From: Eledone cirrhosa
Lineage: Eukaryota
DNA length: 64,000 nt
Reading direction: 5' to 3'
Assembly (NCBI GenBank): GCA_964016885.1
Contig: OZ024753.1
Location: forward strand, 11,160,001-11,224,000
Under the pieces are notes generated by a model, which searched no databases, was not told the origin of the DNA, and saw only the letters and a list, made by a program, of their open reading frames with translations. Below, piece after piece: positions 33,604 to 64,000 of the stretch. The translations under genes and the position numbers were made by a program. The stretch's first letter is position 1, and every line of letters begins with the position of its first letter.

Positions 33604-33762
33604 TATGTATGTATGTGTGTATATATATATTCACTGACACTGATATATATTCACTGACACTGATAGCTTGTAAATATGTACATATATGTGCTGACATATA
33701 TTTATCTTTCTATTTGTTTATCTACCTACCCATCTACACCTATCTATCTATCTATCTATCTA

Positions 33763-37889
<4,127 letters not shown>

Positions 37890-38732
37890 AGGAGGACGAA
37901 CTGACCAGCCTGTTCGGTAGGACATTCAGCCCGGGACCTATGGACAACTTCCAGAAGTCCCTGGCCTGGCAGTGCTACCGAGGGGCTTTACCCGTTCGAG
38001 AAAGGCTCTACAGACACGGGCGCCCGGGAAGGGACCCCGCCAAAAAGATCTGTCCCAGATGCGTGTGCGACGAGGAAACCGTTGCACACGCATTGGTACA
38101 CTGCTCGGGCGTAGCCGATCTGTGGGGCTATGTCGAACAACTGCTGTCAAGGGTGGAACCGATCCGGTTGACCACCGAGTCTATTGTAATGATCAAGCCG
38201 CCTCCCCCCTTCAAAGATGAAGCAGAGGCGGTGTTTCTGTGCGTAATAGCCATGGCGAAAGAGGTTGTATGGTGGACGCGTCTGAAAGGACTGAGGTCAG
38301 GCACCTTTCTCTCTGGCCAACAACTGGTCCGTTTCTTCCGATATCATTTCGGAAGAAGGATCAGGATGGAGAGAGAGGTGCTGCACCCCAGCCGTTTCTA
38401 TGAAAGATGGGTGAAAGTGGCGAGAATGGCCCGTGTGAATGGGCCTTCACTCTACATCAGACTATAGGTGAGGAAGATGAAAGACCAAGGGAGCACCCCT
38501 TCTCTGTGCTCCTGAGGAGAAGGGTTGCACACTTTTTTCGGGGGTGTGTGCGACCCCCCAAGGCGCCTCCTCTCTATTGAGGATTTTGTTAAAAAATTTT
38601 ATTTTTTGTTATATCTTATTTTATTTTTATATTTTGTTATTGCCTCCTCCTTATTGAGGACGCCTTTTTGTGTAAACTCCCCCCTTTGTACTTGTCCCAC
38701 TTTTGATGCCCTAGTGGCAAATAAAAGAAATA
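37890..38732 (+). mobile_element. Tx1 copy 2, 5'-truncated (843 bp)
   Basis: Near-identical 3' end; (TATC)n on both sides. Confidence 0.95.
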
Positions 38733-38875
<143 letters not shown>

Positions 38876-39820
38876 TGGCAGGCGGATCCGGTTATCAGTG
38901 GAGACTCCACCGCAACATTCTATAGAGGGCTGGTACGCAGCAGGTGCGACGACGCCCTCGGAGAAGCCCTAGACATGGAGGAGGACGAACTGGCCAGCCT
39001 GTTCGGTAGGACATTCAGCCCGGGACCTATGGACAACTTCCAGAAGTCCCTGGCCTGGCAGTGCTACCGAGAGGCTTTACCCGTTCGAGAAAGGCTCTAC
39101 AGACACGGGCGCCCGGGTAGGGACCCCGCCAAAAAGATCTGTCCCAGATGCGTGTGCGACGAGGAAACCGTTGCACACGCATTAGTACACTGCTCGGGCG
39201 TAGCCGATCTGTGGGGCTATGTCGAACAACTGCTGTCAAGGGTGGGACCGATCCGGTTGACCACCGAGTCTATTGTAATGATCAAGCCGCCTCCCCCCTT
39301 CAAAGATGAAGCAGAGGCGGTGTTTCTGTGCGTAATAGCCATGGCGAAAGAGGTTGTATGGTGGACGCGTCTGAAAGGACTGAGGTCGGGCACCTTTCTC
39401 TCTGGCCAACAACTGGTCCGTTTCTTCCGATATCATTTCGGAAGAAGGATCAGGATGGAGAGAGAGGTGCTGCACCCCAGCCGTTTCTATGAAAGATGGG
39501 TGAAAGTGGCGAGAATGGCCCGTGTGAATGGGCCTTCACTCTACATCAGACTATAGGTGAGGAAGATGAAAGACCAAGGGAGCACCCCTTCTCTGTGCTC
39601 CTGAGGAGAAGGGTTGCACACTTTTTTCGGGGGTGTGTGCGACCCCCCAAGGCGCCTCCTCTCTATTGAGGATTTTGTTAAAAATTTTATTTTTTGTTAT
39701 ATCTTATTTTATTTTTATATTTTGTTATTGCCTCCTCCTTATTGAGGACGCCTTTTTGTGTAAACTCCCCCCTTTGTACTTGTCCCACTTTTGATGCCCT
39801 AGTGGCAAATAAAAGAAATA
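38876..39820 (+). mobile_element. Tx1 copy 3, 5'-truncated (945 bp)
   Basis: Near-identical 3' end; (TATC)n on both sides. Confidence 0.95.
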
Positions 39821-40052
39821 TATCTATCTATCTCTGGGATGGACACACGCGTATAACTTGCTGAGTAAGTTCTGTTTAAATTTCTATAGAAATTCTTGTC
39901 TGATAACTTTAATTTTTGTACCATTTTGTAGAGGGACTGCCAGGTCAAACTTTGATCTGGTCAGTCTCTCAAAATATTCTACGCCTTTAGGCGAAATAGT
40001 TAAAAAAAAAAAAAAGTTTTTTTTTCTTGTTGAAAAGTCAATATTTTTTTAA

Positions 40053-41840
40053 ATGGCCGAAGCTTCTTCACCAAAATTCGAAGGAGGAAAGGGGAAGATG
40101 AACTTACAGCTTCCCCCTGCCACTGTCACAGTAGCAGAGGTCAAGAAGATAGGTCAGCCAGAGGAAGAATTCTCTCCACCTGTTAACCGACAACTTGACG
40201 TTGCCATGGCAACTACCCAAAGAACCAGCAGCAACAGCAACAACAACAACAATGCGACGGACGAAAGCAACACCAATAACAATAACAATAACAACAACAA
40301 CACCAATAACGGTGACAACAACAACAATGATAACAACAACACCACCAACGACAACAACAACACAAACAAACAAAATTTCTCCTTCGCCGAGACGACAAGG
40401 AAAACCCTCGACTATCTGCCAGTAGATATAACAAAAGCGAAGGAGCTACTGGCGGATGCGAAAAAATATATAGTGTACGGGGAAAATGGTTCATTCACAA
40501 TCCATTCCCCCCCGGAACTAAAAAGCCAGAGACTCCTAAACACGGTCATGTTTAGGACAATTTCGAACAAAAGTAAAAAACCAGCTCAACCATCACAGAG
40601 CGAGATAGAGCTGGTTTTAAAAGACGTCATGAAGGACATCACCTTCATTCAGAAGGATAGACTCTACGGGAGTCTATCCATTCTCATGAAGGACAGGGAC
40701 ACAGCAGTGAAACTGTCCATCAAACCAATCACATCCACCGCATACACCTTCTACCCTACGTACATGGGTAGAAGAACACAAAAAATAAAAATCCACACCA
40801 TCCTGCCGATTATGGACATATGGTGGGTTTTGACAGGTTTTCTGGACCTGGAGGATGACATGCTGGTGTCCATGGGAAAGGCATCGGGTGACGCGTTCAG
40901 TGGAACGAGCCTCGAACTTGTAGTTCAAATGAGGCCCGAAAGGATCGCCCAGATCCCTGAACGCGTCATACTGGATGATCTAACCTTCATCAACATTACC
41001 GTTGAGGGTAGACGGCCCTCGTGTTACCTCTGCGGAACCAGAGGTCACCTGAGGGCTGTCTGTCCCCAACTTAATAAGAAAACCCCAATCCTGCCTACAC
41101 CACCAACAACTGCACAACCAACACAATCACCACAACTACTACTACAAAAACAACCACCACAGCTCAAACCAAAACAAAACAATGTCCAACCCATCCCCTC
41201 CACCCAAAAAACAAAAACAATTTCCAAAACACCCGTACCGCAAACACAACCCGAAAATATACCCCTCCCCTCCAACGCGGAAGATGACCCTAGTTCGTCG
41301 TCAGACGAGGAGGAGCACTTCCACACAATCAAAAGAAAAAAAAGAAAACACACCTCAGACACACAAATGAAAACAACCCCTCCCCAAAACATAACACTGA
41401 CACCAACACAAAAGAGCTCACAACAGCAAACAAAAAACACCACACAAAAACAAAAACATGCATACACATACATAAATACAAGAAACAAAAAACTGTTAAA
41501 CATTGTGTACAACAACAATCTAATAAAAACACAAGGGCCTAACTTCACCCAGGCAGGGGATTTCCCCCACCTCAAAATGATTAAGGCCCCACAGGACACC
41601 TATAAAACTTTAAAAAACAATTTTAAAGAGGACGTGGGTCCCCCCTGCGTCGGGCCCATTAACCGCGTCCTCCTAAAAAACTATCCCACCCCCTCCCCAA
41701 ACACCCTCACAACTCCAAGCTCCCCAACCACACAACACACTGATGCCCCCACACTTCCACAAACCACCACCCCACCCAACAACCCATCCCCCACCCTAAT
41801 GGAAATTGTGCAGCCCGATACCCGGGACGCAGAGAGGTAA
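40053..41840 (+). CDS. Tx1 ORF1 nucleic-acid-binding protein, 595 aa
   Basis: Zinc knuckle CYLCGTRGHLRAVC (CX2CX4HX4C), Asn-rich tract, Pro/Thr/Gln-rich region, SSSSDEEE followed by basic KRKKRK. Confidence 0.9.
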   Translation: MAEASSPKFEGGKGKMNLQLPPATVTVAEVKKIGQPEEEFSPPVNRQLDVAMATTQRTSSNSNNNNNATDESNTNNNNNNNNNTNNGDNNNNDNNNTTNDNNNTNKQNFSFAETTRKTLDYLPVDITKAKELLADAKKYIVYGENGSFTIHSPPELKSQRLLNTVMFRTISNKSKKPAQPSQSEIELVLKDVMKDITFIQKDRLYGSLSILMKDRDTAVKLSIKPITSTAYTFYPTYMGRRTQKIKIHTILPIMDIWWVLTGFLDLEDDMLVSMGKASGDAFSGTSLELVVQMRPERIAQIPERVILDDLTFINITVEGRRPSCYLCGTRGHLRAVCPQLNKKTPILPTPPTTAQPTQSPQLLLQKQPPQLKPKQNNVQPIPSTQKTKTISKTPVPQTQPENIPLPSNAEDDPSSSSDEEEHFHTIKRKKRKHTSDTQMKTTPPQNITLTPTQKSSQQQTKNTTQKQKHAYTYINTRNKKLLNIVYNNNLIKTQGPNFTQAGDFPHLKMIKAPQDTYKTLKNNFKEDVGPPCVGPINRVLLKNYPTPSPNTLTTPSSPTTQHTDAPTLPQTTTPPNNPSPTLMEIVQPDTRDAER

Positions 41841-41864
41841 GTGCCTTTTCTCTTCACCACCAAC

Positions 41865-44800
41865 ATGGCTATGCTAAGAGTAGGCTGTTTAAATGCGCGT
41901 GGCCTGGGCTCAACTTGGAAGCAAGCAATGCTTCTAAATGACCTCAGGTCACAACGTATAGATGTGATGGTTATTTGCGAGGCCCGGATCAGCAACGTGC
42001 GACAGCTGGCCCCCACCTTTGATGACTTTGAGATGCACGCATCTCTCTGTCAGCCCGGAGGTGGGGGTGGAGTTGTCGTTCTGCTGCAAAAACATCTGGG
42101 TCTCGCAACACAGATGGTACATTTGGACCCGGAGGGTCGACTAGTGGTTCTGGACCTTGGCAGTGGTAAAGGCGGAGCGTTTAGGTTGGTAGCCGCCTAC
42201 GGCCCTTTCGGGTCAATGCGGCCGGACTTCTTCCATCGTCTGGAGACTTTTCTAGGGACGTCCCGCTCCTTGCTATTAGTGGGGGACTGGAATGGTATCC
42301 TAGATGCACGCTGGGACTACGTAGGGGCCTGCCCCGATAGAGAGGGGTGTAATAGCCTCAAAGGGTTAATCGGTCGATTTGACCTGGCCGATAGATATCG
42401 ACTAGATTTTCCGACTGCGCCAACCTGGACTTGGGCAAATCGTAGCGGATCATCTAGGTCGTACCTAGATAGGTTCTTAGTTAGAATTAAGGATAAGGAC
42501 TTTTTAAGTTGTCCAAAAATGCGCATTGTTGGCTATTCAGACCACAAATTAGTGACCTGCATGGTCAACCTTGACAGAACTCATAGACAGGGCCCCGGTT
42601 ACTGGAAGCTCAACTTGTCCTTGCCGGCAAGTAGAGCCTACAGGAATCGGATTAGTACGTTAGTTAAGGAACGGTTGACTGGAGCGATCGTCAACAGCAG
42701 GTGGTGGGTATCTCTAAAGAGAGAGATTAGAGTAGTCTCGATAGAATTTAGTAAGGTTCTAGCTGCGGATAGGAATAGGAAGGAAAGGGAGCTAATAGAT
42801 AGAGTAGAAGAGGCAATTAGAAGCGGCGACGTGGCCAGAGTGCTAGCGTCGAGAACGGCGTTGAGCCAGTTTTTCGACGCGAAGCACGAAGGCTGCGTTG
42901 TCCGAAGTAAAATACGTGCTCTAGGGAACGAGGGGACCAAAGCTGTTAGCTGGGCCCGCGTGACAGAGGCCAACAGTGGAACTAAATCCACCATCCGGTC
43001 TTTGCAAGTCCTGGATGGACGGGCGATTCTTGAGCCTAAGCAGATGTGTGAGGCCTTTCAAAGGCACTTTGCCCGACTGTTCGGGAGGGGCGGGGAGCCG
43101 GTTGGGAACGTGGACTTCGGTCCATACCTCGACGGCCTGCCGCGCCTCTCGGACAGGGAGGCGAAGTCCTGCGAGGAGCCGATTTCGGCCGCTGAGATAG
43201 AGGACGTGCTGAGCCAATGCGGCAAACGCAAATCCCCGGGTCTCGATGGTCTTCCTTACGAATTATATCTAGCTATGCCGGACTTGTTCCCCGATCTCCT
43301 CGAGGCGGTCTACTGCAACTGGCAACAGAACGGGAGAATTCCCTGTACTGTGACCAAGGGCGTAGTCACGCTAGTGAGGAAGGACGAGAACAAGGGGGAC
43401 GAAATAAGTAACTTCAGGCCCATAACACTGCTAAATACAGAGTTACAGATTTTGGCCAAGGTGCTAGCAAAGAGGTTGGCGCTTGTCGTGGGCAACCTGG
43501 TGGGAGATGCGCAGACATGCGCTATCCCGTCCAGGTCCATCCATGACAACCTCCACCTCATGCGATACATCATAGAGAGGGTTGGGAACGAACCCGGCTT
43601 TGGTGGGGCTCTGATCAACTTGGATCAATCTAAGGCGTTCGATAGGGTCGACCATGGTTACCTGGATGCGGTGCTAGCGGCGGCAGGCTTCGGACCCGTT
43701 TTCAGGGGCTGGATCACTGCTATGCACAGCAGCCGCATCTGCTCTAGGGTCAAGGTGAACGGCTACCTCTCGGAGCCGTTCAAAATCGCGCGGTCCATCC
43801 GACAAGGGTGCCCTCTCTCCTCCCTTCTGTATGTGTTGACTCTCGAGCCACTACTGCGGAAGTTGGAGTTGTTGCAGGGCATCCCTTTGGAACCGGGATT
43901 GCGGAAAGCGGTGTCGGCCTACGCCGATGACGTGACAGTAATGGTGTCGACGGCCTCCGAAATCGAGGCGGTCGGCACCTTACTGGAGGAGTACGAAAAG
44001 TTCACAGGGGCTAAGCTGAACCGGGACAAGTCGATCGGTTTGCAACTCGGCACGTGGAGGGGCAGACCGATGCCCTCCGATAGCGTCGTCGGACGCTGGA
44101 CGGAGGGCCCGGTGAAGTTGCTCGGGGTCTGGTTCGGACCGGACCTCCAGGTGGAGAAAAACTGGGCGGAGGTTACGAACAGGGTGTTTGCACTGACCCA
44201 GAAGTGGGCCAGTTGCAAACTATCCCTGAAAGGTCGGGCGGAGGTGGCGAACACCTACATAGCGTCCGTCATCTACTACCGCCTGACCGTAGTGCCCTGC
44301 CCAAGGGAAACCCTCACCAAGATGGAGCGCGCGCTCTTCCAATTCCTTTGGAAGAGGCGGGCTCCTATGGTGAGGAGATCCATCTGCTGTCAACACCCTT
44401 CGAAAGGAGGGCTGGGGATGCCGTGGCTAATGATGCGTAAACACGCATTAAGGCTACGGCACCTCTACGTATTCCTCACCGGACAACCGGTGTGGGCCTC
44501 GTTTGTGAGACGAACCTTTCCCAAACTCGTCTCACTCACCGAGCTGCAATCCTGGGTCAAGCAAAGACCGAGAAAACTGGGCGCCTGGCACACTGAGTGT
44601 GCCCAGGCGCTCACCGCCCTCTGGCAGGCGGATCCGGTTATCAGTGGAGACTCCACCGCAACATTCTATAGAGGGCTGGTACGCAGCAGGTGCGACGACG
44701 CCCTCGGAGAAGCCCTAGACATGGAGGAGGACGAACTGGCCAGCCTGTTCGGTAGGACATTCAGCCCGGGACCTATGGACAACTTCCAGAAGTCCCTGGC

Positions 44801-45302
44801 CTGGCAGTGCTACCGAGGGGCTTTACCCGTTCGAGAAAGGCTCTACAGACACGGGCGCCCGGGTAGGGACCCCGCCAAAAAGATCTGTCCCAGATGCGTG
44901 TGCGACGAGGAAACCGTTGCACACGCATTAGTACACTGCTCGGGCGTAGCCGATCTGTGGGGCTATGTCGAACAACTGCTGTCAAGGGTGGGACCGATCC
45001 GGTTGACCACCGAGTCGATTGTAATGATCAAGCCGCCTCCCCCCTTCAAAGATGAAGCAGAGGCGGTGTTTCTGTGCGTAATAGCCATGGCGAAAGAGGT
45101 TGTATGGTGGACGCGTCTGAAAGGACTGAGGTCGGGCACCTTTCTCTCTGGCCAACAACTGGTCCGTTTCTTCCGATATCATTTCGGAAGAAGGATCAGG
45201 ATGGAGAGAGAGGTGCTGCACCCCAGCCGTTTCTATGAAAGATGGGTGAAAGTGGCGAGAATGGCCCGTGTGAATGGGCCTTCACTCTACATCAGACTAT
45301 AG
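41865..45302 (+). CDS. Tx1 ORF2: APE endonuclease, reverse transcriptase, C-terminal zinc finger (1145 aa from the first ATG)
   Basis: LNARG, ICE, GDWN, LDRF, SDH; KSPGLDG, FRPITLLN, DQSKAFDRV, QGCPLS, YADD; CPRC..ETVAHALVHC. Confidence 0.96.
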   Translation: MAMLRVGCLNARGLGSTWKQAMLLNDLRSQRIDVMVICEARISNVRQLAPTFDDFEMHASLCQPGGGGGVVVLLQKHLGLATQMVHLDPEGRLVVLDLGSGKGGAFRLVAAYGPFGSMRPDFFHRLETFLGTSRSLLLVGDWNGILDARWDYVGACPDREGCNSLKGLIGRFDLADRYRLDFPTAPTWTWANRSGSSRSYLDRFLVRIKDKDFLSCPKMRIVGYSDHKLVTCMVNLDRTHRQGPGYWKLNLSLPASRAYRNRISTLVKERLTGAIVNSRWWVSLKREIRVVSIEFSKVLAADRNRKERELIDRVEEAIRSGDVARVLASRTALSQFFDAKHEGCVVRSKIRALGNEGTKAVSWARVTEANSGTKSTIRSLQVLDGRAILEPKQMCEAFQRHFARLFGRGGEPVGNVDFGPYLDGLPRLSDREAKSCEEPISAAEIEDVLSQCGKRKSPGLDGLPYELYLAMPDLFPDLLEAVYCNWQQNGRIPCTVTKGVVTLVRKDENKGDEISNFRPITLLNTELQILAKVLAKRLALVVGNLVGDAQTCAIPSRSIHDNLHLMRYIIERVGNEPGFGGALINLDQSKAFDRVDHGYLDAVLAAAGFGPVFRGWITAMHSSRICSRVKVNGYLSEPFKIARSIRQGCPLSSLLYVLTLEPLLRKLELLQGIPLEPGLRKAVSAYADDVTVMVSTASEIEAVGTLLEEYEKFTGAKLNRDKSIGLQLGTWRGRPMPSDSVVGRWTEGPVKLLGVWFGPDLQVEKNWAEVTNRVFALTQKWASCKLSLKGRAEVANTYIASVIYYRLTVVPCPRETLTKMERALFQFLWKRRAPMVRRSICCQHPSKGGLGMPWLMMRKHALRLRHLYVFLTGQPVWASFVRRTFPKLVSLTELQSWVKQRPRKLGAWHTECAQALTALWQADPVISGDSTATFYRGLVRSRCDDALGEALDMEEDELASLFGRTFSPGPMDNFQKSLAWQCYRGALPVRERLYRHGRPGRDPAKKICPRCVCDEETVAHALVHCSGVADLWGYVEQLLSRVGPIRLTTESIVMIKPPPPFKDEAEAVFLCVIAMAKEVVWWTRLKGLRSGTFLSGQQLVRFFRYHFGRRIRMEREVLHPSRFYERWVKVARMARVNGPSLYIRL

Positions 45303-45566
45303 GTGAGGAAGATAAAAGACCAAGGGAGCACCCCTTCTCTGTGCACCTGAGGAGAAGGGTTGCACACTTTTTTCGGGGGTGTGTGCGACCCCCCAAGGCG
45401 CCTCCTCTCTATTGAGGATTTTGTTAAAAATTTTATTTTTTGTTATATCTTATTTTATTTTTATATTTTGTTATTGCCTTCTCCTTATTGAGGACGCCTT
45501 TTTGTGTAAACTCCCCCCTTTGTACTTGTCCCACTTTTGATGCCCTAGTGGCAAATAAAAGAAATA

Positions 45567-45832
<266 letters not shown>

Positions 45833-45860
45833 CATCTACACCTATCTATCTATCTATCTA

Positions 45861-46363
45861 CGAGACAAGCTCTACAGACATGTGCGCCCGGGCAGGGACC
45901 CTGCAAAAAAGATCTGTCCAAGGTGCATGCGAGACGAAGAAACCGTCGCGCACGCATTCATACACTGCCCGGGCGTCACCGACCTGTGGGGCTATGTAGA
46001 ACGACTATTGTCGCGGGTGGGACCAATCCGGTTGACCACCGAGTCGATTGTCATGATCAAACCGCCACCCTCCTTCAAAAACGAAGGAGAGGCGGTTTTC
46101 CTTTGTGTGATAGCTATGGCGAAAGAGGTTGTATGGTGGACAAGGTTGAAAGGGCTGAGGTCAGACACCTTTCTCTCCGGCCAACAACTGATTCTTTTTT
46201 CAAATACCACTTTGGAAGAAGAATCAGGATGGAGAGGGAGGTGCTGTATCCCAGCAAGTTTCATGAAAGGTGGGTGAAAGTGGCGAGAATGGCCCGAGTG
46301 AATTGTCCTTCTCTCTATATCAGCCTGTAGGTTGAGGAAAAGGAGGAGAGGAAAGGAGTACAA
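45861..46363 (+). mobile_element. Tx1 copy 5, diverged subfamily 3' fragment with frameshifts
   Basis: KKICPRCMRDEETVAHAFIHC...; 3' UTR start gttgaggaaaagg resembles copy 0; follows (TATC)n. Confidence 0.88.
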
Positions 46364-46381
46364 ACTCCTCCAGTAAGGTGC

Positions 46382-47932
46382 GATCGGCACCTTACTGGAG
46401 GAGTACGAAATGTTGACAGGAGCTAAGCTGAACCGGGACAAGTCGATCGGTTTGCAACTCGGCACGTGGAGGGGCAAACTGATGCCCTCCGATGGCGTCG
46501 TCGGACGCTGGACGGAGGGCCCGGTGAAGTTGCTCGGGGTCTGGTTCGGACCAGACCTCCAGGTGGAGAAGAACTGGGGTGAGGTTACGATCAGGGTGTT
46601 TGCACTGTCCAGAAGTGGGCCAGTTGCAAACTATCCCTGAAAGGTCGGGCGGAGGTGGCGAACACCTATATAGCGTCCGTCATCTACTACTGCCTGACCG
46701 TTGTGCCTTGCCCAAGGGAAACAATCGCCAAGATGGAGCGCGCACTCTTCCAATTCCTTTGGAAGAAGCGGGCTCCTTTGGTGAGGAGATCCAGCTGCTG
46801 TTAACACCCTTCGAAAGGAGGGCTGGGGATGCCGTGGCTAATGATGCGTAAACACGCATTAAGGCTACGGCACCTCCACGTATTCCTCACCGGTCAACCG
46901 GTGTGGGTCCCGTTTGTGAGACGAACCTTTCCCAGACTCGTCTCACTCACCGAGCTGCAATCCTGGGTCAAACAAAGACCGAGAAAACTGGGCCCCTGGC
47001 ACACTGAGTGTGCCCAGGCGCTCACGGCCCTATGGCAGGTGGACCCGATTATCAGTGGAGACTCCACCGCGACATTCTATAGCGGGCTGGTACGCAGCAG
47101 GTGCGACGACGCCCTCGGAGAAGCCCTAGACATGGAGGAGGACGAACTGGCCAGCCTGTTCGGTAGGACATTCAGCCCGGGACCTATGGACAATTTACAG
47201 AAGTACATGGCATGGCAGTGCTTCTGAGGGGCTCTACCCGTTCGAGGAAAGCTCTACAGACACGGGCGCCCGGGTAGGGACCCCGCCAAAAAGATCTGTC
47301 CCAGATGCGTGTGCGACGAGGAAACAGTTGCACACGCATTGGTACACTGCTCGGGCGTAGCCGATCTGTGGGGCTATGTCGAACGACTGCTATCACAGGT
47401 GGGACCGATCCGGTTGACAACCGAGGCCATTTTAACGATCAAGCCGCCTCCCCACTTCAAAAATTAAGGAGATGCGGTGTTTCTGTGCGTAATAGCCATG
47501 GTGAACGCGTCTGAAAGGACTCAGGTCAGGCACCTTACTCTCTGGCCAACAACTGATCCTTCTTCCGATATCACTTCGGAAGAAGGATCAGGATGGAGAG
47601 AGAGATGCTCAACCCCAGTCGTTTTTATGAAAGGTGGGTGAAAGTGGCGAGAATGGCCCGTGTGAATGGGCCTTCTCTCTACATCAGCCTGTAGGTGGAA
47701 AAGAGGAAGGAACGAGGGAGCACCCTCTCTCTGTGCTCCTGAGGAGAAGGGGCTGCACACTTTTTTAGGAGGAGGGTGGGTGGGTGGGGGGACCCTCCCA
47801 ACGCCCCCTCCCTATTGAGGACTTTATTGTTAATTTTATATTTGTTATTTGTTTTCTTTACTCGCCTTTTTGTGTAAACTACCCCCTTGTATTTGTCCCC
47901 TTCTTTTGCGCCCTCGTGGCAATAAATAGAAA
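46382..47932 (+). pseudogene. Tx1 copy 6, degraded 5'-truncated copy
   Basis: Collinear with ~43971-45566 but with frameshifts, stops and small deletions; ends gtggcaataaatagaaa-TCTATCTATCTAT. Confidence 0.9.
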
Positions 47933-48167
47933 TCTATCTATCTATTCACCCACCCATCCCTCCCTCTGTGTCTATATCAGTGTGTACACACTCACCTAAT
48001 AATCATGAATGCTATTATCAATGACATAGTTAAGCAATTTTCGCTGATCACCCATCGATTCCCATCTCGTAATTCATTCCTGAACGAATGAATGAACAAC
48101 GTATATTAATGTCTCATTACATGAGTCTACTTACACTGCCATAAAGTAGCTGGAGCATCCCTTGGAA

Positions 48168-48468
48168 ATAATGGTTTCTACTCTAGGTACAAGGCCAGCA
48201 ATTTAGGGGGAGGGAAAAGTCGATTAAATCGACCCCAGTGCGTGACTGGTACTTTATTTTATCGACCCCGTAAGGATGAGAGGCAAAGTTAACCTCGGTA
48301 AGATTTGAACTCAGATCATAAAGGGCCGTAACTCTATACTGCAAAGCATGACCCCCCGTAAGGATGAAAGGCAAAGTTAACCTCGGCGAGATTTGAACTC
48401 AGATCATAAAGGGCCGTAACTCTATACTGCAAAGCATGTCGTCAGACTCTCTACCAATACTGCCAATT
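48168..48468 (-). mobile_element. SINE family 1 with internal partial duplication
   Basis: ccccgtaaggatga...ctgcaaagcatg present twice. Confidence 0.8.
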
Positions 48469-49508: not shown

Positions 49509-50879
49509 TGATATCTAAATCTATTTACAATCCTCCATATACAATATATATAAATATATATATATATATGTATGTATATATATATGTATGTATATATATA
49601 TGTATGTATATATATATGTATGTATATATATATGTATGTATATATATATATGTATGTATATATATATATGTATATATATGTATGTATATATATATGTATA
49701 TATGTATATATGTATGTATATATGGATATATATATGTATATATGTATATATGTATGTATATATGTATGTATATATGTATATATGTATGTATATATGTATA
49801 TATATATGTATATATGTATGTATATATGTATATATATATGTATATATATATGTATATATATATGTATATATATATGTATATATATATGTATATATATATG
49901 TATATATATATGTATATATATATGTATATATATATGTATATATATATGTATATATGTATATATATATATGTATGTATATATGTATATATATATATGTATA
50001 TATATATATATGTATATATATATGTATGTATANNNNNNNNNNNNNNNNNNNNNNNNNNNNNNNNNNNNNNNNNNNNNNNNNNNNNNNNNNNNNNNNNNNN
50101 NNNNNNNNNNNNNNNNNNNNNNNNNNNNNNNNNNNNNNNNNNNNNNNNNNNNNNNNNNNNNNNNNNNNNNNNNNNNNNNNNNNNNNNNNNNNNNNNNNNN
50201 NNNNNNNNNNNNNNNNNNNNNNNNNNNNNNNNTGTATGTATATTATGTTATATATGTATGTATATATGTATATATATATGTATATATGTATGTATATATG
50301 TTATATATATATGTATATATATATGTATATATATATGTATATATATATGTATATATATATGTATATATATATGTATATATATATGTATATATATATGTAT
50401 ATATATATGTATATATATATGTATATATGTATATATATATATGTATGTATATATATGTATATATATATATGTATATATATATATATGTATATATATATGT
50501 ATGTATATATATATGTATATATATATGTATATATATATGTATATATATATATGTATATATATATGTATGTATATATATATGTATATATATATGTATATAT
50601 ATATGTATATGTATATGTATATATATATGTATATATATATGTATATATATATGTATATATATATGTATATATATACGTATATATATGTATATATATATGT
50701 ATATATATATATATATATGTATATATATGTATATATATATGTATATATATGTATATATATATGTATGTATATATATATGTATGTATATATATATGTATGT
50801 ATATATATATGTATGTATATATATATGTATGTATATATATGTGTATGTATATATATATGTATGTATATATATATGTATG

Positions 50880-50911
<32 letters not shown>

Positions 50912-50912
50912 C

Positions 50913-50946
<34 letters not shown>

Positions 50947-51269
50947 GTATGTATATATATATGCATATATATATGTATATATATATGTATGTATATATAT
51001 ATATGCATATATATATGTATGTATATATATATATGTATATATATATGTATGTATATATATATATGTATATATATATGTATGTATATATATATATGTATAT
51101 ATATATATGTATATATATATATGTATATATATATATGTATATATATATATGTATATATATATGTATATATATATATGTATATATATATGTATGTATAGAT
51201 ATGTATATATATATATGTATGTATAGATATGTATATATGTATAGATATATATATATGTATATATATATG

Positions 51270-51326
<57 letters not shown>

Positions 51327-51509
51327 GTATATATATATATATATATGTTTATATATGTATATATATATCTATGTATATATATATATGTATATATATATGT
51401 ATGTATGTATATCTATATATGTATGTGTGTATAAATATGTGTATGTATATATATATATGTGTATGTATATATATATGTGTATGTATATATATATATATAT
51501 ATATGTATG

Positions 51510-51560
<51 letters not shown>

Positions 51561-51589
51561 GTATGTATATATATATATATATATGTATG

Positions 51590-51642
<53 letters not shown>

Positions 51643-51768
51643 GTGTGTATGTATATATATATATGTATTTACATATATATATGTATTATGTACATATATA
51701 TACATATGGACATATATATGTATGTAAATGTATGTACATATATATGTATGTATATATATGTATATGTC
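49474..51768. repeat. (TA)n/(TATG)n satellite spanning an assembly gap
   Basis: Seen directly. Confidence 0.95.
50033..50232. other. Assembly gap (200 N)
   Basis: Run of n. Confidence 1.
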
Positions 51769-52360
51769 AGGTTGGTGCTACTGGTAACATGTATCCCAGT
51801 ACAACCTGACTCATGGTCAGGTCGTTGGCGACTAAACTGGCAACCCCACCAAGGCTTCTTGGTGAGGAGGGTGACTTTGGACATCCTGCAGGACTAAAAA
51901 CAAAACCTGCCAAAGGGCAAAAGAGCTCTTAAAAGTCAATGGCCATCCAAAATCACCGGGAGAGATGACCCCTTAGCCTTTGTCAAGGCAGAATTCTAGG
52001 AGAAGGAAAACTCTGATATAACACCTGCAACCCTGATGGTATCCAATGATGTTGACTTGTTCTTTTTGGTAAATATCATCTTGGTTAGAGAGTGGGACTG
52101 GCTTTGTGCAGTGCCTTTGCTCACTATAAAAGCTTCACGGCACAGGCATTGCTTTATATCTGGAGATCTCTCTGCACTTGTCGTGACATGGTAGCATGGG
52201 CCCAGCACTAAGTGTCAAAAATTGTTACAAGTGTAGTGTTTGTACCAGAGTTTTCAAGTCAATGGCTGGACTAAAAAGTCATATTCGTCCAGCGTTTCGG
52301 TAGGGGTTCTCCTACATGGATATAAAGTAGTGGCCGCACTCGAAAACGAATTAGCAGCCA

Positions 52361-52362
<2 letters not shown>
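51768..52362. mobile_element. Longer copy (~595 bp) of the 11019-11471 repeat, inserted in TA satellite
   Basis: Collinear from aagggcaaa.gagctctt to gcagccac; about 145 bp extra on the left. Confidence 0.7.
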
Positions 52363-59756
<7,394 letters not shown>

Positions 59757-61305: not shown

Positions 61306-61611
61306 ATAATTGTTTCTACTTTAGGCACAAGGCCAGCAAATTACCCAGTACATTACTGGTACTTTATTTTATCGACCCCGTAAGGATGAAAGGCAAAGTT
61401 AACCTAAATATATATATATATATATAATTGTTTCTACTTTAGGCACAAGGCCAGCAATTACCCAGTGCATTACTGGTACTTTATTTTATCGACCCCGTAA
61501 GGATGAAAGGCAAAGTCAACCTCGGCGGGATTTGAACTCAGATCGTAAAGGGACGTAACTATGCTGGAAAGCATGGCGTCCGACCCTCTACCGATACTGC
61601 CAATCCACCGC
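61306..61611 (-). mobile_element. Partial plus complete family 1 SINEs
   Basis: 61306-61405 is a 3' half; 61424-61611 is complete. Confidence 0.85.
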
Positions 61612-61614
61612 CTC

Positions 61615-61704
61615 TGCTTGGCTTGGTTTGGTTTTCGCTTCCGTATATTTTATAGGAACCAACCTGAACCAAACAGTGAGTGTGTTTTATTATATATTTC
61701 TAGC

Positions 61705-61750
<46 letters not shown>

Positions 61751-61910
61751 GCTAGAATAATATAATAAAACACACTCACTGTTTGGTTCAGGTTGGTTCC
61801 TATAAAATATACGGAAGCCCAAACCAAACCAAGCCAAGCAGTGAGTGTGTTTTATTATATATTTCTGGCAATTTTATAACAATATTACCCTCCCCAAATA
61901 TAACAATATT
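61615..61910. repeat. ~95-bp inverted repeat around (TA)n plus a direct partial third copy
   Basis: gcttggcttggtttgg...ctagcaatatt (TA)n aatattgctag...ccaaaccaagccaagc, then cagtgagtgtgttttattatatatttct again. Confidence 0.85.
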
Positions 61911-61920
61911 ATATATATAT

Positions 61921-62108
61921 GGGCGGTGAATTGGCAGTATCGGTAGAGGGTCGGACGCCATGCTTTGACGCATAGAGTTACGGCCCTTGCCATTCTGAGT
62001 TCAAATCCCGCCGAGGTTAACTTTGCCTTTCATCCTTACGGGGTCGATAAAATAAAGTACCAGTAATGTACTGGGTAATTGCTGGCCTTGTGCCAATAGT
62101 AGAAACAA
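61921..62108 (+). mobile_element. SINE family 1
   Basis: Complete copy, same variant as 8687-8879. Confidence 0.85.
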
Positions 62109-62149
62109 ATAAATAGAGAGAGAGAGAGTATAATAAAGAAACTATGTCG

Positions 62150-62435
62150 CTGGTGCTATCAGCAGCGAAAACAAGGCATAACCTGGAAGACAACGTGCTC
62201 CGACAGGTTCTGTGCCTTTAGCCTTGTGGCAAACCCGGACTCCCCCCCCCATGGAGAAGAGAATTAGATAACCTAATACTGGGCTTGGCCAACAGCTTCC
62301 CTTTCGTACCTATCGCCTTGGAGACCACAATGTCTTCACTCCTATTTTCCTCTACTCGTTCGAGGAAGTAGCCCTTTAAGATAGGTTGGCTGCTGCACCG
62401 AGTGTTGTTGGCCATTCTCAACTGCAATCCAGGTG
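62150..62435 (+). mobile_element. Second, heavily decayed CRE-like endonuclease relic
   Basis: Fragments TTCSDRF, FVPIALET and GWLLHRVLLAILNCN parallel ATCSDRF, VVPLAVET and KWLFQCISLTTLRGN at 12.6-12.9 kb. Confidence 0.5.
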
Positions 62436-63501
62436 AAGCTGAAGCATGCCGCTCAGGCTGGGGTGAGCAATCTCTCGCTTCGTTCCCAATTCTCATTTCT
62501 TTCGATGCTCAATTTCTTTTTGATTTTTCCTTTCCTTATTTGAAATATATTATTGTTATACAGACTAAACCATCGATCGCCAATATATCGGACCTCACGG
62601 ACCATTACATTTATAATTTTAAACCCCGCGAACCACAAATATGAATCTTTTTAAAAAGAACCACCAATCATTTCTCTCGGGTCACTGGTTGGTGATCGCT
62701 GGACTAAACAATGACTAACAAGGTATATTGTTAAGAAAATATGGCGATAAAACAATTAATCACAACCTCTCCCTTTATTGTTAAAAGAAAGTAAATTGTA
62801 AAACAAGTGAAAGGTGTAGCTTATTCGTTTCGAAAATAATAAATCTTTTAATGACCTCGTCCTTATTGTCGCTATCATTACACTAAGAAAATATAACCCC
62901 AGATATTGCAATATGCTGAAGAAGTTCACATTGCAACTCAGTTATTCCGAGTTCTATCACATTCTGCGACGAAGAAAACATTTTTTTTCACTTTATAGAC
63001 TTCTAAAACTGGTTATCTCTCGCATTTCAGTTCTGATCAGGCAAACTTATAATCAAATATTCCCAGCAGGACAATCCCTTCATTATTCTGATTGTACAGA
63101 GCGTTACAGTAACGAGTGTATTTCCACTAAAGATGCTGGTTATGGGGTCTGTAAAACGAGGTATATTTAGCTGCTATTTTCAGGTTTCAGCTTTAGATAT
63201 TACACTAGAGACTTCATTAGTTTTAAAAGACACTATTGCAACAGAGTGGTGTGTGTTGCGTGGTGTGCGTGTGTGGAATAGACCATTTTATGCATTGATT
63301 TCGACCAAATTGGTAGTATAAAATCACTCTCACCCATTTTTACGCGTGATACAATTGATACAGAAATAGCTTATTGAAAGTTTTAGTGGGAAATTGGCCA
63401 AAAATTGTTCCCCAAATTTAATAATTTTTTATTTTTAGATAATCAGCAATATGTTGTTCAATATTACTGAAATTTTAAAAAGTGGTGGATTCTGACAAAC
63501 A

Positions 63502-63749
63502 TTGGCAGTATCGGTAGAGGGTCGGACGCCATGCTTTCCAGCATAGTTACGTCCCTTTACGGTCTGAGTTCAAATCCCGTCGAGGTTAACTTTACCTTTG
63601 ATCCTTGCCGGGTCGATAAAATAAAGTACCAGTAATGAACTGGTACTTTAACTAAAGTACCAGTAATGAACTGGTACTTTAAATAAAGTACCAGTAATGA
63701 ACTGGTACTGGTAATTGCTGGCCTTGTGCCAAAAGTAGAAACAATTATA
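63502..63749 (+). mobile_element. SINE family 1 with an internal triplicated 31-bp palindromic unit
   Basis: aaagtaccagtaatgaactggtact at 63623, 63654, 63685. Confidence 0.85.
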
Positions 63750-63925
63750 ACGACATATCTAGCAGTATATATTTACAACCATTTATGTCGTGAGTTCAAA
63801 TCCCACCAATGTTGTCTTTGCTTTCCATCCTACTGGAATGAAATGATAAATAGCAACCACGTACAGTGGGTGATGTAGTTCTCTGTTACTTCCAACCATA
63901 TCAAATATAGTCTTGTGTAAGAAAA

Positions 63926-64000
63926 TAATTGTTTCTACTTTAGGCACAAGGCCAGCAATTATCCAGTGCATTACTGGTACTTTATTTTATCGACCCCGCA
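63926..64000 (-). mobile_element. SINE family 1, cut by the window edge
   Basis: ataattgtttctactttaggcacaaggccagc...ttatcgacccc. Confidence 0.8.

Follow-up and report, generated by a model that had tools for sequence, protein, structure and literature searches.

Several families of the Tx1 clade of long interspersed nuclear elements (LINEs) insert into microsatellites, including Kibi in (TC)n, Koshi in (TTC)n, and crocodilian families in (TTCC)n/(TTTC)n (PMC4494074; articles cited by PMC number are used here in excerpt throughout), and the targets given for other clades are ACAY, AC, TAA, and TG (PMC3812793, PMC4640811). A Tx1-mobilised short interspersed element (SINE), SINEU-3, shows tandem sequential insertions around a duplication (PMC4494074, PMC3812793), and Tx1L of Xenopus prefers a site within a DNA transposon, a specificity that was shown in vitro (PMC1950540). 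In coleoid cephalopods, L1-Tx1 elements have been described as a class that expanded and was active in recent times (PMC8967140, PMC13282606); for Octopus vulgaris, 13 families are listed, along with 421 insertions that were recently active (PMC13282606, Table 1). Here we describe a LINE copy from Eledone cirrhosa (39833-45566, hereafter FL) in a stretch of 64,000 nt (contig OZ024753.1 of assembly GCA_964016885.1, positions 11,160,001 to 11,224,000, forward strand; hereafter the window, whose numbering is used below). FL is likely to be a recently inserted copy of a family in the L1 group, probably in its Tx1 clade, that has repeatedly entered a (TATC)n/(GATA)n site.

Similar to the Kibi, Koshi, and crocodilian families, FL has an endonuclease of the apurinic/apyrimidinic (APE) type and lies in a pyrimidine-rich microsatellite (a comparison by description); it differs from them in that TATC/GATA is not among the units listed in the excerpt of PMC4494074, and in that their hosts are fish or crocodilians. 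The surroundings of FL recall the tandem insertions of SINEU-3. Like Tx1L, FL has an L1-group APE endonuclease with a hairpin loop between conserved Thr/Ser anchors and appears to prefer a site (PMC1950540), but the site is a microsatellite and the specificity is inferred. Human LINE-1 ORF2p (PDB 8sxt, 1vyb) is nearest in sequence and fold among solved proteins, with the same domain order and catalytic residues, and both elements carry two open reading frames (ORFs) in one frame; FL differs in its endonuclease (∼18-19% identity), its lack of poly(A), the apparent CCHC knuckle in ORF1, a shorter ORF2 with a zf-RVT-type end, and a clustered target. FL also resembles cephalopod L1-Tx1 elements, in low divergence and in an ORF2 that is 59-65% identical (to Argonauta proteins); no target preference is stated for these elements in the excerpt of PMC13282606. 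Our search found no LINE targeting GATA/TATC in the literature covered (repeat catalogues were outside its scope, so a prior description is possible), and the excerpts of PMC9635652 and PMC3124438 held nothing bearing on such a target. FL is a further LINE of an already known type, with a target unit for which we found no published example in that literature. Its intactness alone is ordinary, since octopus has many L1-Tx1 copies that are young and undamaged, as the 421 insertions of O. vulgaris illustrate.

The features of FL, all on the forward strand, are as follows.

39833..45566, + strand: FL, a two-ORF LINE copy (from ORFs, motifs, and alignments with its neighbours)
39833..40052, + strand: 5′ untranslated region (UTR) of 220 nt, in which ∼39931-39970 folds into an 18-pair hairpin
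40053..41840, + strand: ORF1, 595 aa, with an Asn-rich N-terminus, a central domain, one CCHC knuckle (∼41019-41069), and a low-complexity C-terminus
41841..45302, + strand: ORF2, 1153 codons between stops, in the frame of ORF1, with its first ATG at 41865
41865..42569, + strand: APE-type endonuclease domain of ORF2 (model pLDDT 94.8, and Foldseek)
43398..44129, + strand: reverse transcriptase (RT) core of ORF2, YADD at 43920-43931 (Pfam RVT_1)
44790..44960, + strand: C-terminal cysteine/zinc region of ORF2 (zf-RVT; C, C, H, C conserved)
45303..45566, + strand: 3′ UTR, 264 nt, ending in AATAAA and followed directly by the TATC tract, without poly(A)
45567..45831, + strand: (TATC) tract behind FL, ∼66 units, with a 2-nt phase slip at 45727-45728

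Both ORFs are uninterrupted, as an earlier note on this DNA had stated: there are no internal stops in 595 and 1153 codons, compared with a longest stop-free frame of 255 aa in 200 shuffled versions of FL. The same note called the element full-length, which holds for the two ORFs; for the 5′ end, as for ORF1, the window offers no second copy for comparison, and therefore the 5′ UTR could be incomplete. As a whole this UTR folds more stably than expected (z -4.03; 0 of 200 shuffles equally stable), and a comparison with Rfam gave nothing at the gathering score (best E 0.94, chance-level rows); the folding of the 3′ UTR is less marked (z -1.78). Some smaller observations concern the same stretch. 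A (CAA)-type repeat in ORF1 (40232-40362) encodes the Asn-rich stretch, and changes in its length would preserve the frame. A near-perfect splice-donor word (41835-41842), the sole exact one in FL, overlaps the ORF1 stop and may be there by chance; the nearest in-frame acceptor would give an intron of 42 nt, which is probably too short. The CpG content of ORF2 (41865-45302) is 0.86 of expectation, with little sign of methylation decay, and that of the left flank is 0.88. The phase slip in the otherwise pure tract behind FL may reflect slippage, a sequencing error, or the scar of an aborted insertion.

We compared the endonuclease model to known structures using Foldseek, and every one of the top 12 rows was an entry for L1 endonuclease or for ORF2p, at a best E of 2e-18 and a TM of ∼0.79, ranking ahead of cellular AP endonucleases; the endonuclease sequence alone was uninformative against PDB. 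In ORF2, Pfam identified RVT_1 (E 5e-26) and Exo_endo_phos (4e-8), whereas its zf-RVT match (4e-5) fell short of the cut-off; it gave no RNase H family match in FL at E up to 0.1. The catalytic and zinc motifs reported earlier are present (residue numbers are codons counted from 41841): N18, E47, D149-x-N151, D210, and H235 of the endonuclease, D696/D697 of the RT (YADD), and C1016/C1019/H1028/C1033 of the zinc region. R526 and D595 are present as well, and all of these residues are identical in every one of the 10 close relatives that cover each position. The CCHC knuckle of ORF1 is visible by eye and scores below the Pfam cut-off (E 0.051). Sequence searches found no relatives of ORF1, its single-sequence structure prediction was unusable (pLDDT 32), and its look-alikes in the atlas were zf-CCHC and RRM-like clusters of eukaryotic origin (0.89-0.92). 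For ORF2, the ESM Atlas returned only generic LINE clusters with no taxa attached.

FL is an APE-type non-long terminal repeat retrotransposon of the L1 group. The solved protein nearest to its RT is human L1 ORF2p (E 9e-48, compared with 3e-19 for R2), in a PDB that holds few LINE clades. As in L1-group elements there are two ORFs and a C-terminal cysteine-rich region, and the array around FL adds 5′-truncated copies, a common 3′ end, and a probable target-site duplication (seen once); the poly(A) tail of mammalian-type L1 is found at none of the six preserved 3′ ends. The nearest named relatives of ORF2 are the Argonauta hians proteins GAB1601854.1, GAB1606090.1, and GAB1599396.1, and in a 30-row tree ORF2 groups with GAB1606090.1 at 97/99 support. 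These relatives by themselves would point to an octopod as the probable host. Within the L1 group, with which Tx1 is classified (PMC3747384), FL probably belongs to the Tx1 clade, considering its size, the zf-RVT end, the apparent ORF1 knuckle, the lack of poly(A), and insertion into a microsatellite. An ORF1 with a CCHC zinc knuckle is typical of that clade. The placement was judged by these features; it is a point against it that the tree contained no labelled Tx1 reference, and no Tx1 family names appeared among the database matches of ORF2.

The case for repeated entry into one site comes from the layout of the region. FL is one of seven pieces on the same strand (33760-47933) that share a single (TATC)n site, and these represent four sequence types (75%, 84%, 94%, and >98% identical to FL). 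The other six pieces, labelled c0 to c3, c5, and c6, and the two copies of a duplicated sequence are listed below.

33730..33758, + strand: left copy of a 29-bp exact duplication, in a pre-existing degenerate TATC site (probable target-site duplication)
33760..34155, + strand: c0, short, 5′-truncated, distant type (∼75% to FL), followed by (TATC)112
34606..37855, + strand: c1, 5′-truncated sibling (99.66%), followed by (TATC)8
37890..38732, + strand: c2, 5′-truncated sibling (98.8%), with two alleles in common with c6, followed by (TATC)35
38876..39820, + strand: c3, 5′-truncated sibling (99.5%), separated from FL by (TATC)3
45832..45860, + strand: right copy of the 29-bp duplication, an exact match of 33730..33758
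45861..46363, + strand: c5, 5′-truncated, other type (84%), with a 1-nt deletion and a 3′ UTR cut at the c6 junction
46364..47933, + strand: c6, decayed (94% in the coding part), with 4 in-frame stops, 3 coding deletions, and a short TATC run at its end

TATC repeats are found directly 5′ of six of the seven pieces and directly 3′ of six of the seven, the exceptions being the two sides of the join between c5 and c6. All ORF2 homology and all eight TATC runs (of at least three units) in the window fall in 33.7-47.9 kb; unlike this clustered homology, a SINE-like repeat is dispersed over both strands, and no LINE copy occurs in the kilobases of TA repeat. The six truncated copies have six distinct 5′ start points, while six of the seven pieces end at a common 3′ terminus, with AATAAA just upstream of it. 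The 5′-most degenerate TATC run cannot be a tail of the array copies, because it lies upstream of the first of them. The 29-bp duplication, whose 11-nt head has five mismatches to a TATC run, occurs twice in the window (33730, 45832) and nowhere else in it. Five pieces (c0 to FL) lie between its two copies, and its most plausible interpretation is that of a target-site duplication made by c0 (11-29 bp). Taken together, the array is a record of at least four insertion waves at one site. For comparison, PMC4494074 calls a family target-specific when the target occurs in >20% of flanks, a measure for copies across the genome; the fraction here, six of seven on either side, comes from a single locus. 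At the c5/c6 join, the 5′ end of c6 contains an 18-bp perfect fold-back (46364-46381 / 46387-46404) joined to c5 without a 3′ UTR; this fold-back and the loss of the 3′ end of c5 suggest self-priming or template switching.

Our best explanation builds on what was observed of the anatomy and fold of FL, its catalytic residues, the layout of the array, the duplication, and the alleles, and takes its steps from established LINE biology. A bicistronic RNA would give ORF1p and ORF2p, and the endonuclease would nick the GATA strand. The 3′ end of the RNA, running into UAUC repeats, would pair with the nicked strand and prime reverse transcription, so that no poly(A) would be copied. Reverse transcription would commonly end early, giving 5′ truncation, and a staggered second nick would create a duplication that is invisible in a pure repeat and visible in an imperfect site (the 11-29 bp noted above). 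Since each insertion would leave TATC on both sides, the target would be renewed and a head-to-tail array built. The likely order is c5 and c6, then c0 with its duplication, then c2, c1, c3, and FL in the tract within the duplication; FL would be a sibling of c1-c3, all of them from source copies elsewhere.

Several observations weigh against true targeting or limit what the array can say about it. There is a single locus, and the window has no empty TATC site or outside copy to serve as a control. As every tail provides a further target, the seven pieces do not test specificity independently of one another. A variant first repeat unit is common to all four young copies (c1, c2, c3, and FL), c0 and c6 having the plain unit; this fits an RNA that runs into the start of the tract, but it could equally be simply the last two bases of the element. 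A conserved 3′ RNA structure, sought in three sequences, amounted to three pairs with no covariation.

It is possible, though on the doubtful side, that the endonuclease has no true specificity, the TATC repeats being the copies' own tails and the clustering arising from RNA-tail pairing where nicks are weakly specific or from passive survival, as proposed for Drosophila Waldo-A/B in repeat-rich DNA (PMC3812793); this would alter the targeting mechanism and leave the rest of our explanation as it is. No TATC run of at least three units occurs in the window away from the copies, the start of the tail appears to be templated by RNA, and loop grafting in the L1 endonuclease indicates that recognition can be structural and loose (PMC1950540), all of which agree with low specificity. 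What argues for a targeted site is the pre-existing degenerate TATC sequence that bounds the array on the left, and the presence of four types up to 25% apart in one site while kilobases of nearby TA repeat are empty. A single break phase would also fit the 5′ junctions of c0, c1, c2, FL, and c5, with c3 off by one base, which is suggestive only; microhomology at the 5′ junctions (3 nt in c1, none in c2 and c3) was found in too few cases for a test.

The earlier note counted about a dozen differences by eye over 3.2 kb for c1 and described three near-identical neighbours, both of which are correct: c1 differs from FL by 11 substitutions in 3250 bp (0.34%), c2 by nine substitutions and one insertion in 843 bp, and c3 by five differences in 945 bp. 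In addition, it proposed FL as a source element; for these neighbours the alleles point the other way. At 45017, 45314, 45345, and 45480, c1, c2, and c3 agree with each other and differ from FL, none of the three carrying the FL allele. The older copies match c1-c3 at 45314 and 45345, are uninformative at 45480, and are split at 45017; at 44524, where only c1 overlaps, they match c1 and not FL. Because two alleles are common to c2 and the older c6, c2 came from a different or earlier template. Counts of private alleles among the young copies (4, 0, 6, and 1 over the 842 bp they share) weakly reject equal age (P 0.04). Judging from these shared alleles, FL looks like a sibling of c1-c3 and not their parent, and that it produced them is unlikely. 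Two points run counter to the sibling relationship: at 45017 FL has the allele of the older c5, off a simple tree, and FL could be a parent that mutated after producing its neighbours.

Whether FL itself can still transpose is a separate matter, on which we lean slightly to the negative from its coding sequence. A copy with 8-15 random changes keeps its ORFs open with a probability of 0.73-0.55, so open ORFs are weak evidence of competence, being expected in any young copy. We assessed conservation with 155 of 156 chosen proteins aligned (P0011-P0053, consisting of 13 weaker matches and 30 cluster members, were left out): FL departs from the others at 12 of 114 conserved columns (10.5%), compared with a median of 7% and an upper quartile of 11% for its relatives. 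In the 2484 bp without sibling coverage (39833-42316), 4-7 private changes are expected, and two rare residues adjoin the catalytic E47 and Y120 there: A48, where 78 of 100 relatives have T, and G121, where 99 of 128 have A. Another rare residue is H629, which is Y in 143 of 152 relatives. Position 536 is K in 149 of 153 relatives and Q in FL, and its counterpart in L1, K541, contacts the primer/template (PMC10830420). We considered three residues as defects and rejected them: Q536 is also found in an Argonauta protein and in c1, S661 (for the common P) is also found in close relatives, and C792 is also found in c1 and c6. The description "retrotransposition-competent" goes beyond what the sequence shows, which is a copy that is structurally whole and young: intact ORFs are the default for such a copy, and A48 and G121 are rare.

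We consider it improbable that FL is a live source copy, one that made c1-c3 and still transposes. In favour of this reading, neither ORF is interrupted and no catalytic residue is missing, the amino-acid differences between FL and c1 (389, 390, and 895) are in variable columns, the change at 536 looks tolerated given its other occurrences, and an AATAAA and a structured 5′ UTR exist. Set against these are the four sites at which c1-c3 agree against FL, the older alleles of c2, the private changes expected in the sibling-free part, the position of A48 and G121 within that part, and H629 with its one-residue insertion, both lacking in close relatives though present in c1.

Mobility of the family is a different question, and the sequences support a recent one: the "recently active" of the earlier note applies to the family, whose young copies differ by <1.2% and show a synonymous excess, and is not supported for FL as a source. 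With an octopus calibration (Jukes-Cantor distance of 0.09 = 25 My; PMC13282606), the young copies date to ∼0.2-1.3 My at most, assuming an octopod host and that all changes followed insertion. Of the 14 coding differences that separate the young copies, just 6 are nonsynonymous, below the expected share of 0.71-0.76 (P 0.007-0.025), so not all differences arose after insertion; dN/dS relative to c5 and c0 is 0.10. The synonymous excess and this ratio suggest several source lineages under selection and a family that was mobile recently. The siblings of FL also lie within the yardstick of 2% divergence or less given in the excerpt of PMC13282606.

Two further explanations concern the origin of the young copies. 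An origin of all four in one event, with template jumping between RNAs in a single reverse transcription, would agree with their head-to-tail order and the gap of just ∼12-14 nt between c3 and FL, and the c5/c6 junction, with its fold-back and lost 3′ end, indicates that such joins occur here; however, the spacers are 8, 35, and 112 units long, the private-allele counts are unequal, c2 is of another allele type, and c0, at 75% identity, lies within the duplication as well, which makes a single event very unlikely. Local DNA duplication, gene conversion, or assembly error, by which identity would be uninformative on transposition, is more improbable still: the region is very rich in repeats and has a 200-N gap at 50033-50232, but each copy has its own 5′ break and the common 3′ end, 17 of the 18 differences are substitutions, including 12 transitions, synonymous changes are in excess, and if TATC tracts had recombined, whole units would have been copied.

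Outside the array, 61 of the 64 candidate open frames in the window were compared with Pfam (the other three overlap a repeat or the array), which gave two weak matches below the cut-off and no credible match. The dispersed SINE-like repeat is seen at 48170-48345 and at ∼15-18 other places (including 7718-8877, 20396, 28325, 30086-30438, 32526, and 61308-63998), with copies 75-96% alike, on both strands, and some in tandem; we presume that it resembles an octopus SINE, and a literature search with a short stretch of it found nothing. Degenerate TA arrays with a strong strand skew occupy 14125-17843, 21683-24712, and 50249-59754 (up to 9.5 kb), and there are two minisatellites, at 559-1963 (92 bp unit, 15.5 copies, 96%) and 20634-21201 (28 bp unit, 20 copies, 90%).

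GATA repeats are numerous and dispersed in animal genomes. The earlier proposal of a site-specific integration tool for such repeats goes too far, with a single locus behind the specificity and six of the seven pieces 5′-truncated; FL is a weak, speculative candidate for that use. Its value lies more in the question of targeting: the means by which LINEs of the APE type select microsatellites are reported to be poorly understood (PMC3812793), and the near-intact FL could be used directly to tell the specificity of the endonuclease apart from RNA-tail pairing. A broader possibility, which we regard as a long shot, is an octopod-wide LINE lineage that combines a true GATA endonuclease with the pairing UAUC tail of its RNA, and in which every insertion, even an aborted one of the tail only, would renew and lengthen the target. 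If so, the family would rank among the chief producers of GATA microsatellites in these genomes, acting much as a small telomerase does; scars of such events would be seen in the pure tracts of 112 and 66 units and in the phase slip at 45727, and FL would be a live copy in which microsatellite recognition by an APE-type element could be tested.

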